From: a virus
Lineage: Duplodnaviria; Heunggongvirae; Uroviricota; Caudoviricetes
Reading direction: 5' to 3' (one strand)
IMG/VR virus record: IMGVR_UViG_2663762857_000011
Coordinates: 1-4,903 of that record
Length of the DNA stretch: 4,903 nt
Of the stretch, positions 1 through 4,903 are shown piece by piece. How positions within the stretch are numbered: the first letter of the stretch is position 1; every line of letters begins with the position of its first letter. Below the pieces are notes generated by a model, which saw nothing but the letters and a program-made list of their open reading frames with translations, made no database searches and was not told where the DNA came from. A program made the position numbers and the translations under genes.

Positions 1-144
1 ACCGGGTTCTCCTTTCCATTTTTGGCAAACAAAAACTCCTGTTAAATTGCCGTGCTGGTTAACAGATGTATGCCCTACGATGTAGCTTCCTTTAGTTGCT
101 TTCTCTGCCTTTTCACGCAGTGCCTGATAGTTAATTTGGGTCAC
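1..144 (-). CDS. Hypothetical protein, partial: N-terminal 48 codons, continues past the left edge of the window
   Basis: GTG at 144..142 overlaps the upstream TGA stop (GTGA). GGAGG lies 7 nt upstream. The frame is open for 48 codons to position 1 (VTQINYQALREKAEKATKGSYIVGHTSVNQHGNLTGVFVCQKWKGEPG). Absent from the ORF track, presumably because it is truncated. No homology recognised. Confidence 0.4.
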   Translation of the reverse strand, partial: MTQINYQALREKAEKATKGSYIVGHTSVNQHGNLTGVFVCQKWKGEPG

Positions 145-365
145 TCTTCATCCTCCAAGTCGGCAACGGCGTCCATCACATCAGAACCGCGAATAACCTC
201 AAAAGCACGGCAGGCCATTTGAAATACCAGTTGCTCTTGCGGATGCGGTGATTCCCAATATTTGAATCCAGGGCGATGCGCGTACCCCATCATTGAATAA
301 AAATCACCAGCAAGCTTAATCGCGGCATCAACAAGCTCTCTGTTAGTCATTCTTTTTCCGCTCAC
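141..365 (-). CDS. Small hypothetical protein with acidic C-terminus (about 75 aa from GTG; ORF track gives 85 aa from an upstream start at 398)
   Basis: ORF track 141..398. The preferred start is GTG at 365..363, preceded by AAGGAGG at 6 nt spacing and overlapping the upstream stop as GTGA. C-terminus ...VMDAVADLEDEE. Leftward early operon context. No recognised domain. Confidence 0.55.
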   Translation of the reverse strand: MSGKRMTNRELVDAAIKLAGDFYSMMGYAHRPGFKYWESPHPQEQLVFQMACRAFEVIRGSDVMDAVADLEDEE

Positions 366-2508: not shown

Positions 2509-3107
2509 TCTATTTTCCTCTGCACAAGATATTAGTTTCTCCACAAAACAGAGAAGAACACCTGCGGTGGCAGCCGCCCGGGTGGATTGGGTTATGAGCC
2601 CGTCGTCCGGTGATGCTCTTCTCTGTTTTGTAAAAAGAGCGGTACCAGCCGGAAGCAAGTGTACAAACTGGTACCGCCAAAGCAGTGGCTGCTGTGGTGA
2701 CCGATGCTGATCTCCGGCTTGCGGTTATTTCAGACTCTCACGGGCGTTTAATTGCCCCGCCGAACAGCTCTTTTCCGCAATAGCTGCAATGTCTTTCGTG
2801 CATCAGCCTGCGCATTCACCACAACGCTGAGAGCACTTAGCCAGTTACGGCACCACACTTTGTCGCGGTTCCATAAATGCCCTCATCGTTGCACCCTGGT
2901 CTCTTCCCAGGTGTCAAACCGAACCGCCACGCTGGTTAGGCGTCTTATCAGCATCCTCATTGACTTGCACATTCCGGCTACCTGGTTTGTTTGCCCGAGC
3001 AAGGAGTGGATTGTCCCCTTTAACGTCCCCAGACCGCTAACGACGCATGTGCCATACGCCGTGTTACAACCAAATTTTGTTTAATCTTGCCTGTGACATG
3101 TTTCTTT
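2509..3107 (-). other. Long (~590 nt) untranslated, GC-enriched, inverted-repeat-rich leader between the pL-like promoter and the first leftward gene; candidate structured RNA or regulatory element
   Basis: No minus-strand ORF of 60 aa or more. All three minus frames are interrupted by stops (one frame has stops at 3066, 3039, 2916, 2847, 2805 and 2727). Local GC is about 55-57% against roughly 40-45% in flanking genes (estimated by eye). Multiple hairpins, including the 18 bp inverted repeat at 2543..2631 and GGTACCAG/CTGGTACC at 2641..2675. Confidence 0.4.
2543..2631 (-). repeat. 18 bp inverted repeat flanking a 53 nt GC-rich loop (89 nt hairpin) just upstream of the RdgC-like RBS
   Basis: Plus acaaaacagagaagaaca (2543..2560) against tgctcttctctgttttgt (2614..2631). 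The single mismatch is A/C on the plus strand but a G.U wobble on the minus-strand RNA, so the stem is fully paired only in the leftward transcript. Confidence 0.6.
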
Positions 3108-3142
3108 TAGATACATTATGTATCTCAAGGGTACATTGTCAA
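3108..3142 (-). promoter_or_regulatory. pL-like early leftward promoter (-35 TTGACA, 16 nt spacer, -10 CATAAT)
   Basis: On the minus strand, TTGACA at 3142..3137 and CATAAT at 3120..3115. Sits immediately downstream of the cI terminator and upstream of the leader. The -10 is overlapped by the 17 bp palindrome. Confidence 0.5.
3109..3125. promoter_or_regulatory. Operator-like 17 bp perfect palindrome (agatacat-t-atgtatct) overlapping the -10 of the pL-like promoter (oL candidate)
   Basis: Perfect 8 bp arms around a single central base. The position overlapping a promoter -10 is typical of a repressor operator. Confidence 0.45.
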
Positions 3143-3180: not shown

Positions 3181-3855
3181 TTAGGCCTTTATTTTGTATC
3201 TTCTTGGTTTTCCTGAGAAAATTACTGTGCCAATTATAGAGCAATTACCGTTGATCTTAATGTAAGGTTCAGGCCAGTTTGGGTTTAATGCTTTGAGGTA
3301 ACGCTGTGTTCCATCTTCTATCAACCGCTTAAAGGTGGTTTCGCCTGTATCGTGCATCAATGCAATAACGTCGTCACCGTGGCAGGCAGGGACTTCAGGA
3401 TCTACAAAAATCATGTCTCCCGGGCGGTACTCATCAATCATTGAATCACCAATCACCCGCAAGATATAAGTCATTTCGCCACAGGGTACAGGGCAGGGAT
3501 AAGTTTCTGCTGTGCTCAAATCAACCTCAGAATAGCCAACTTCTTTCCATGCTCCGGCCTGTACCCATGATATGACAGGGACTAACGTTATTTGTTTGTT
3601 AGTAATTGAAACATCAGGTTTTTTTGTGATGTTTGTTGTCTGGTGTTCTTGATCAAGCCATCCGACAGGCAGGTCGAAACATTTTTCGATGTGCCGTGCC
3701 ATGCTGTCACCGATATTTTTAGTAGCACCATCTCCCATAAACCTGCTGGTCTGGGTTGGCTCGCGATCAATCATGGTGGCAAAGGAAGAATTCCCGCCAA
3801 CACCATCTCTCAGTTTTCTGGCGTTAGACCGCCGGATGTCATGGACTGTTTTCAT
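3181..3855 (-). CDS. Prophage repressor, CI/LexA family (N-terminal HTH plus C-terminal S24 autopeptidase), 224 aa
   Basis: ORF track 3181..3855. The C-terminal domain has the S24 signature: GDSM with Ser138, FKRL with Lys176 (38 residues apart), and a candidate Ala100-Gly101 autocleavage site (VQAGAW). The N-terminal 70 aa is HTH-like. Divergent from the Cro-like gene and followed by a terminator. Confidence 0.9.
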   Translation of the reverse strand: MKTVHDIRRSNARKLRDGVGGNSSFATMIDREPTQTSRFMGDGATKNIGDSMARHIEKCFDLPVGWLDQEHQTTNITKKPDVSITNKQITLVPVISWVQAGAWKEVGYSEVDLSTAETYPCPVPCGEMTYILRVIGDSMIDEYRPGDMIFVDPEVPACHGDDVIALMHDTGETTFKRLIEDGTQRYLKALNPNWPEPYIKINGNCSIIGTVIFSGKPRRYKIKA

Positions 3856-3945: not shown

Positions 3946-4146
3946 ATGAAAGCGTATTGGGACTCTTTAACCAAAGAACAGCAGGGCGAGTTGGCCGGAA
4001 AAGTTGGCTCAACACCAGGCTACTTACGGCTGGTTTTCAATGGTTATAAAAAAGCCAGTTTTGTGCTGGCTAAAAAACTTGAGCAATGCACGTCAGGTGC
4101 AATTACGAAATCTGACTTAAGACCGGATATCTATCCGAAAGATTAA
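3946..4146 (+). CDS. Cro-like small HTH regulator (YdaS/Cro family), 66 aa
   Basis: Start trimmed from the ORF-track 3922..4146 to ATG at 3946, which has GGAGG at 3931..3935. The upstream ATG at 3922 has no RBS and would translate the SD itself. The C-terminal motif ...SGAITKSDLRPDIY resembles the YdaS-type Cro pattern (...G.V....LRPD). Divergent from the repressor. Confidence 0.75.
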   Translation: MKAYWDSLTKEQQGELAGKVGSTPGYLRLVFNGYKKASFVLAKKLEQCTSGAITKSDLRPDIYPKD

Positions 4147-4177: not shown

Positions 4178-4747
4178 ATGAGGCTAACCGTGGGTAAGCA
4201 TCACTGGAAAGTAGAAAAACAGCCTGAGTGGTACGTGAAAGCTGTCAGAAAAACTATCGCGGCGTTGCCGGGGGGTTACGCTGAAGCTGCTGAGTGGCTG
4301 GATGTAACAGAGAACGCTTTATTCAATCGCCTTCGTGCCGATGGCGATCAGATTTTCCCGCTGGGATGGGCAATGATTTTACAACGTGCTGGTGGAACTC
4401 ACTTCATTGCTGACGCTGTGGCGCAGTCTGCAAATGGCGTCTTTGTGTCTCTTCCTGACGTCGAGGATGTGGACAACGCCGATATTAACCAGCGTCTGCT
4501 GGAAGTCATCGAACAGATCGGGAGTTACTCAAAGCAGATTCGTTCGGCAATCGAAGATGGGGTAGTGGAACCGCATGAGAAAACAGCAATTAACGACGAA
4601 CTGTATCTTTCAATTTCGAAGCTCCAGGAGCATGCAGCACTGGTCTACAAAATCTTCTGCGCTCCAGAAAAGAGTAACGCCCGCGAGTGTGCAGCTCCGG
4701 GCGTCGTGGCGTCGATTGCTTCTGGTTGTGGAGAAACTAACGCATGA
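4178..4747 (+). CDS. CII-like / YdaT-family early regulatory protein (189 aa; possible GTG start at 4190 giving 185 aa)
   Basis: ORF track 4178..4747. Sits directly after cro, the position that CII or YdaT occupies in lambdoid prophages. GAGG lies 6 nt before the in-frame GTG at 4190, whereas no clear SD precedes ATG 4178. The family assignment is by position and general resemblance only. Confidence 0.6.
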   Translation: MRLTVGKHHWKVEKQPEWYVKAVRKTIAALPGGYAEAAEWLDVTENALFNRLRADGDQIFPLGWAMILQRAGGTHFIADAVAQSANGVFVSLPDVEDVDNADINQRLLEVIEQIGSYSKQIRSAIEDGVVEPHEKTAINDELYLSISKLQEHAALVYKIFCAPEKSNARECAAPGVVASIASGCGETNA

Positions 4748-4903
4748 ATAGTTTAACGGCAAATAACCGTTTGCATATTGATTCTGCAATTCCGGGACGT
4801 TACACTGCTCAGGCACCTTATAAAGCGGGGGCCGGGCGTGGAAACCCGAAATTCAATATAGAGCACAACCGCGCTCATGCGGTTTTTTCGTGTCATGAGC
4901 ATC
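4744..4903 (+). CDS. Hypothetical protein, partial: N-terminal 53 codons, continues past the right edge; occupies the position of a replication or early gene
   Basis: ATG at 4744 overlaps the upstream TGA (ATGA). GGAG lies about 10 nt upstream. The frame is open to the window end (MNSLTANNRLHIDSAIPGRYTAQAPYKAGAGRGNPKFNIEHNRAHAVFSCHEH). No family recognised. Confidence 0.4.
   Translation, partial: MNSLTANNRLHIDSAIPGRYTAQAPYKAGAGRGNPKFNIEHNRAHAVFSCHEH

Follow-up and report, generated by a model that had tools for sequence, protein, structure and literature searches.

In characterized DNA mimics negative charge is packed densely over an extended surface, and the protein studied here resembles Ocr, ArdA and Arn in being an early, small, acidic phage protein. 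DinI, a small protein of alpha/beta fold, has an acidic C-terminal helix that is thought to imitate single-stranded DNA and to bind RecA, and the SSB-type tails of E. coli SSB (...DDDIPF) and T7 gp2.5 place an acidic cluster at the C-terminal end, as does the present protein. HK446 gp27 (Oad2), a relative of P22 EaE, is reported in a 2026 preprint to bind the P2 OLD abortive tRNase and to inhibit it directly (bioRxiv 10.64898/2026.07.10.737580), and the same preprint describes the region in which such genes lie as an anti-defence gene hotspot. From the exo-xis region of lambda, Ea22 is reported to favour lysogeny (PMC10834534). The gene described here occupies the same hotspot and operon as the Oad2/EaE genes and its coupled upstream gene is itself an Oad2/EaE homolog, whereas its own product shows no sequence similarity to Oad2 (BLASTP E=4.6).

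The gene lies on the minus strand at positions 141-365 (stop included) of a 4,903-nt window, the whole stretch of DNA analysed, which comes from an E. coli phage or prophage of the lambdoid type and spans its immunity and early-left region. The left 1.5 kb of the window has its best public match in phage Lys8385Vzw at 98.8% identity. Translation of the minus strand from 365 to 141, from the GTG at 365-363 to the TGA at 143-141, yields the 74-residue protein VSGKRMTNRELVDAAIKLAGDFYSMMGYAHRPGFKYWESPHPQEQLVFQMACRAFEVIRGSDVMDAVADLEDEE followed by the stop, and the hypothetical protein QIW91708.1 of Lys8385Vzw is the same coding sequence with identical bounds. The preliminary description had assigned the gene to an early-left operon, and the surroundings bear this out: the window contains a cI-like LexA/S24 repressor gene (3181-3855, minus strand), a divergent YdaS/Cro-like gene (3946-4146, plus strand), a YmfL/CII-like gene (4178-4747, plus strand), a predicted pL-like promoter and a series of leftward genes that are all on the minus strand. 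The promoter element, a strong sigma-70-like TTGACA-16-CATAAT (3115-3142, minus strand), comes after the terminator-like hairpin at the end of the repressor gene; identified by its consensus alone, with agreement at 11 of 12 positions, it is the likely promoter of the leftward operon. The minus-strand genes comprise an RdgC homolog (1591-2508; Pfam PF04381, E=5e-31), an HD-domain YfdR-like 5'-deoxynucleotidase (964-1500; PHROG 318, E=1.7e-109), the 203-aa EaE-family protein directly upstream of our gene (362-973; PHROGs 14548 and 614) and, downstream of it, the N-terminus of an Ead/Ea22-like gene (1-144; Pfam PF13935, E=3.4e-8) that is cut by the window edge and whose full length is 182 aa in Lys8385Vzw and in strain SW070917. 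The RdgC and YfdR-like genes share one early operon, and their products could modulate the host nucleotide pool or RecA.

Coupling to both neighbours, which had been proposed from the letters of the sequence, is evident at either end of the gene. The TGA of the EaE-family gene (364-362) overlaps the GTG start as GTGA (365-362), and the TGA of our gene (143-141) overlaps the GTG of the Ead/Ea22-like gene (144-142) in a second GTGA (144-141). The GTG start and the near-perfect Shine-Dalgarno (SD) sequence are likewise as described, with AAGGAGG at 372-378 on the minus strand, within the codons (K-G-G) that close the upstream gene and separated from the GTG by a 6-nt spacer. In strand, overlaps and SD the gene therefore has the appearance of a translationally coupled lambdoid early leftward gene.

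A second start must be weighed, for RefSeq/PGAP annotates the protein as a 69-aa form (WP_001350881.1) that begins at the ATG of Met6 (348-350, minus strand) and is found on 889 contigs, versus at least 1000 contigs for the exact 74-aa protein. In the alignment of close relatives Met6 is nearly invariant and residues 1-5 are variable, and the leader codons 2-5 (SGKR; 351-362, minus strand) have a fixed length under relaxed constraint (pN/pS=0.51, compared with 0.09 for the core). A start codon nevertheless lies exactly 15 nt 5' of Met6 in 83 of 83 close loci, either as GTG after AGGAGG or as ATG after AGGAGA, and the three different leader sequences present among these loci all keep the SD and the start position; one of the leader variants, ACAGAACAGACG, has no SD-like motif before the inner ATG. 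The block of SD, GTG and leader also accompanies the gene where Lar or DUF2737 takes the place of EaE upstream. These alignments favour the upstream, 74-aa start over Met6, and it is possible that both starts are in use. In our reading the leader would serve as a short spacer peptide, positioning the start over the preceding stop.

The gene is real, conserved and under purifying selection. Its core has a pN/pS of 0.09 over 33 distinct alleles drawn from 82 loci, many phage records annotate the gene as a CDS, and an exhaustive profile search places it in a family of 393 clusters at 50% identity (E<=1e-3), of which 111 are retained at the stricter threshold of E<=1e-10. A word-indexed search returned 87 close relatives, all of them enterobacterial and all unnamed proteins. 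It is present in 161 of 5426 complete E. coli genomes, at 68 chromosomal and 98 plasmid places, and since it is found in only this fraction of genomes it must be dispensable. E. coli O103 RM8385 carries a copy that is 100% identical.

By a full-length profile match the protein belongs to PHROG 4132 (E=1.8e-42, 146 bits; residues 1-74 on profile positions 105-178 of 179), a family that carries no functional annotation and that includes phiV10 gp47 (YP_512302.1), HK629 gp34 (YP_007111808.1), D6 orf95 and U5PW22 of phage Presley; the phiV10 and HK629 proteins are 96-99% identical to ours. The earlier statement that no known family could be recognised holds apart from this assignment: Pfam-A and NCBIfam gave zero families for the protein even at E<=0.1, PADLOC gave zero families for it and its four neighbours, and the family search that had been recommended matched no structural or unrelated characterized family. 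Literature searches by accession, PHROG identifier and peptide strings found no mention of the protein, and it is absent from the searchable supplements of accessory-gene and anti-defence screening papers. Existing catalogues list the protein as hypothetical, with no assigned function, curated family or structural relative, and it is filed among the small phage accessory proteins; as things stand it is one among very many conserved small phage proteins without an assigned function.

The structure prediction that had also been recommended gave an AlphaFold2 model of three helices with a mean pLDDT of 91.4 and a pTM of 0.80. All elements are encoded on the minus strand. Helix 1 (residues 8-25, positions 291-344) carries the motif AAIxLAGxFY that stands out in the alignment, and helix 2 (residues 42-59, positions 189-242) carries PxExxxFxMAxxAFE. 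A long, conserved stretch that is non-helical in the model, the aromatic loop (residues 26-41, positions 243-290; GYxHRPGFKYWESPH), connects these two helices, and helix 3 (residues 63-73, positions 147-179; DVMDAVADLEDE) is predicted to be acidic and amphipathic, the last block of the model having a mean pLDDT of 81. Within the loop and at its end G27, G33, F34, Y36, S39 and H41 are invariant among close relatives, and the wide family retains the loop pattern G[YC]...G[FY][RK]F...HPxE together with the helix 1 consensus NxLARxFY. An alignment of 68 diverse members has the consensus TxxEIVxxxNxLARxFYxxxGYxVxxGxxFxxAxHPQExxxWxMAxxAxExIxGTDVxDALxxLE, in which E44, A51 and A54 are nearly invariant. 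Conservation among these members is highest at core positions that are mostly small or hydrophobic (L18, A19, G27, A51, A54) and in the HPxE motif, and the surface varies, a pattern that suits a binder better than an enzyme. Sequence profiles of the close and the wide family matched PDB entries by chance only (E>=0.34), and a Foldseek comparison of the model with the PDB found no solved structure alike (best E=1.5). Among viral models (BFVD) there was a single match, to the uncharacterized U5PW22 of Acinetobacter phage Presley, with a TM-score of 0.83 over the query. The fold is thus confidently predicted and, as modelled, unlike any solved structure.

Loci collected with the alignment of close relatives show the gene to behave as an autonomous cassette that moves through a hotspot with known anti-defence genes. 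Lambdoid phages carry it, as do epsilon15-like (phiV10) and P1-like (D6) ones, and with its junctions unchanged it is found beside at least six unrelated upstream and at least four unrelated downstream genes. The upstream neighbours are EaE (here and in phiV10), an HK620p08-like gene (HK629), DUF4752 (D6 and phage-plasmids), Lar (strain CAVp367), DUF2737 (strain E10) and a 548-aa ORF (Klebsiella RCIP0047); downstream are several Ead/Ea22 variants plus unrelated genes. In lambdoid phages the gene sits between the recombination genes and int/xis, near Abc2 (anti-RecBCD) and Lar (restriction alleviation), a location that fits an accessory or anti-host role. Its plasmid matches are nearly all P1/D6-like phage-plasmids of about 90 kb that are non-mobilizable, and for this reason the leading region of conjugative plasmids was rejected as the plasmid context. 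More distant relatives are surrounded by small hypothetical genes alone, whether in phages of Acinetobacter and Vibrio, on phage contigs from metagenomes or on megaplasmids of Ralstonia and Vibrio. The two junctions of the gene, AAAGGAGGCAACCAGTGA (362-378) and GGAGGATGAAGAGTGA (141-161, both on the minus strand), are conserved and recur between different gene pairs; each joins an SD to a GTGA overlap through a 6-nt spacer, and together they look like shared boundaries for module exchange in the hotspot.

The upstream EaE-family protein is homologous to P22 EaE and is 35% identical to HK446 gp27 (Oad2) at E=5e-33. Both it and Oad2 end in ...RKGGNQ, the ending that encodes the AAGGAGG junction. 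HK446 itself has no homolog of our protein, gp27 being there the last gene before xis, so that the two genes do not form an obligate pair.

We propose, with a probability of roughly 40%, that the protein binds stoichiometrically to a protein of the host or of a defence system, or inhibits it; the suggestion of an inhibitor in the preliminary description is plausible. Soluble, compact and built of three helices, this small protein of about 8 kDa would be made early from the pL-type operon through translational coupling and, having neither a catalytic motif nor DNA-binding character, would act alone as a stoichiometric protein-binding module that binds and blocks, or re-targets, its partner. The contact surface would comprise the acidic helix 3 with its C-terminal end, together with the aromatic loop (GYxHRPGFKYWESPHP), probably set against a basic, nucleic-acid-binding patch of the partner. 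We infer each of these elements, that is, protein binding as such, a host or immunity partner, and a role of the acidic end in binding. Consistent with the proposal, no enzyme or defence family was detected by Pfam, NCBIfam or PADLOC, and the neighbours include Lar and Abc2 across loci and the coupled Oad2-like EaE here. Against it, the protein has no homology to any characterized inhibitor, the acidity of the tail in its subfamily is confounded by an embedded GGAGGA, and location in the hotspot is only a prior, as the region also holds genes for the phage's own development such as Ea22.

We also considered the more specific idea that PHROG 4132, with about 400 clusters at 50% identity among the phages and megaplasmids of Proteobacteria, is a new-fold class of anti-defence inhibitors, which would block a nucleic-acid-binding immune effector via helix 3 and the aromatic loop, the effector possibly being an OLD-, Gabija- or RecBCD-linked nuclease, and perhaps jointly with the adjacent Oad2-like EaE; in this specific form the idea is doubtful. 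If the protein is a true inhibitor, the family would be a widespread one of new fold, spanning lambdoid, epsilon15-like, P1-like, Acinetobacter and Vibrio phages and megaplasmids, and would back the view of the lambdoid region from recombination genes to int/xis as a store of counter-defence genes.

It is unlikely, although there are real grounds for considering it, that the protein instead modulates the phage's own development (lysis-lysogeny, recombination or replication) via protein contacts in the manner of small lambda exo-xis proteins such as Ea22, Orf63 and Ea8.5. The position of the gene corresponds to the exo-xis region, from which the reported lysogeny-favouring Ea22 also comes; most close loci have a coupled Ead/Ea22-like gene directly downstream; and the operon also carries RdgC and recombination functions. 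The wider distribution of the family fits such a role less well, as evidenced by members in phages BS46 (Acinetobacter) and K478 (Vibrio) and on megaplasmids. No integrase or repressor is annotated within the 6-kb stretches analysed in BS46 and K478, and on this account a lysogeny role is less sensible in these phages and on the megaplasmids. In D6-type phage-plasmids and Klebsiella phages, moreover, the Ea22-type neighbour is swapped for unrelated genes.

The acidic end that the proposed binder would use in contact with its partner had been presented in the preliminary description as a strongly acidic C-terminal tail. That wording holds for the end itself, where five of the last six residues are acidic (D69-E74, DLEDEE; 144-161, minus strand), a composition with a chance probability of about 9e-4 (binomial, at the protein's own D/E content of 17.6%), but it does not extend to the whole protein, whose net charge is only -5.3 and becomes -2.3 without the last six residues. 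Nor is the acidic stretch predicted to be a disordered tail; because the AlphaFold2 model puts residues 63-73 in a helix, it would be the end of helix 3.

The DNA of this stretch has a second content, which raises the alternative that the acidic end has no protein role and is a by-product of the ribosome-binding site and GTGA overlap of the downstream gene as its sole cause. The tail codons TTG GAG GAT GAA GAG TGA contain GGAGGA (151-156, minus strand), read in our frame as E-D and positioned as an SD for the downstream gene, with 6 nt between it and the GTG (144-142), and the final GAG TGA supplies the GTGA overlap. The 16-nt junction GGAGGATGAAGAGTGA recurs without change ahead of at least four unrelated downstream genes (83 loci), and synonymous divergence in the tail (pS=0.17) is half that of the core (pS=0.34), which indicates selection on the nucleotides themselves. 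The GGAGGA, the shared junction and the low pS together argue that the tail DNA doubles as the ribosome-binding site of the next gene and as a module junction.

As a sole cause, however, this arrangement is quite improbable in view of the wider family. Members whose downstream gene begins 25, 118 or 302 nt away keep an acidic end (P0263, ...ILEDE; P0317, ...NLDE; P0293, ...NLE). Among 143 distant representatives that share <50% identity, the eight residues after profile position 66 are 40% D/E versus 2% K/R, compared with 19% D/E over the whole family domain, and Asp codons are also enriched, although an SD does not require them. From these comparisons the acidic C-terminus is a family trait selected at the protein level, and our reading is that protein-level and nucleotide-level constraints act jointly on the tail in the subfamily to which the gene belongs. 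A smaller but solid point of method follows: where genes are tightly packed in an operon, an acidic C-terminus can owe part of its composition to the ribosome-binding site of the gene that follows, and such an embedded site warrants caution when acidic tails are called from raw sequence.

A further suggestion of the preliminary description was that small early proteins of this kind may be DNA mimics. A true mimic like Ocr, ArdA or Arn would use surface carboxylates to imitate the phosphate backbone and thereby block DNA-binding enzymes. The protein is acidic overall (pI 4.6-4.9, 13 D/E), it is encoded by an early gene in an anti-restriction neighbourhood with Lar adjacent in strain CAVp367, and its acidic end is conserved family-wide. 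We nevertheless consider true mimicry very improbable, because the net charge of about -5 lies almost entirely in the tail. The protein is far less charged than Ocr, ArdA and Arn, its charge is confined to six residues, it has no sequence or fold match to these or to any other known mimic, Pfam mimic families included, and a 65-residue three-helix domain could imitate only a few base pairs unless it were oligomeric.

The remaining acidic systems are instructive chiefly by their differences. The protein is similar in size to DinI and, in the model, likewise ends in an acidic C-terminal helix, and the operon here encodes the RecA modulator RdgC; it lacks a Pfam DinI match, however, and is modelled as all-helical, and the analogy is one of concept only. 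Membership among the SSB-type acidic tails was also rejected: the protein ends in ...DLEDEE, with EE at the terminus in place of a hydrophobic tip, and its end, with residues 63-73 modelled as helix, is predicted to pack onto the domain with no flexible linker; there is no OB fold.

That the reading frame is not a gene at all, but a chance ORF or a signal from the overlapping plus-strand ORF at 52-222, has only short length and a non-ATG start to speak for it and is refuted by the 393 family clusters and the pN/pS of 0.09 in the frame of the gene, in keeping with the confident fold prediction and the CDS annotation in many phage records.

Domain architecture was surveyed in the top 143 family representatives, of which 75 are stand-alone domains; the others include extensions and a few tandem duplications. 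The extensions of 60 extended members are mutually unrelated, and the 20 longest have no Pfam domain above threshold, with weak hints of wHTH and zinc ribbons; many may be gene-calling artefacts. Since the extensions are unrelated and without Pfam domains, fusion partners give no functional clue and were rejected as functional evidence. In a few members (P0088, P0133 and P0214) the domain is duplicated in tandem, a hint of possible self-association; a single-sequence model of P0088 was poor (pLDDT 66).

Two further elements of the window lie outside its protein-coding genes. Between the pL-like promoter and rdgC, about 600 nt (2509-3108, minus strand) contain no credible ORF and no N gene. This segment has a folding energy of -220.9 kcal/mol (z=-4.1 versus shuffled controls) and an inverted repeat with 25-nt arms (2543-2567 and 2607-2631), it has no match in Rfam, and mEp460, cdtI, Ayreon and Stx2c phages share it at 97-99% identity. 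A structured leader RNA may be encoded here, and that it might act as an N-independent antitermination element is only an idea. On the plus strand, directly 3' of the YmfL/CII-like gene, positions 4813-4889 match the full model of the isrK Hfq-binding sRNA (Rfam RF01394) with 57.7 bits, compared with a gathering score of 50 (E=7e-11), and a terminator-like hairpin is located at 4867-4884.
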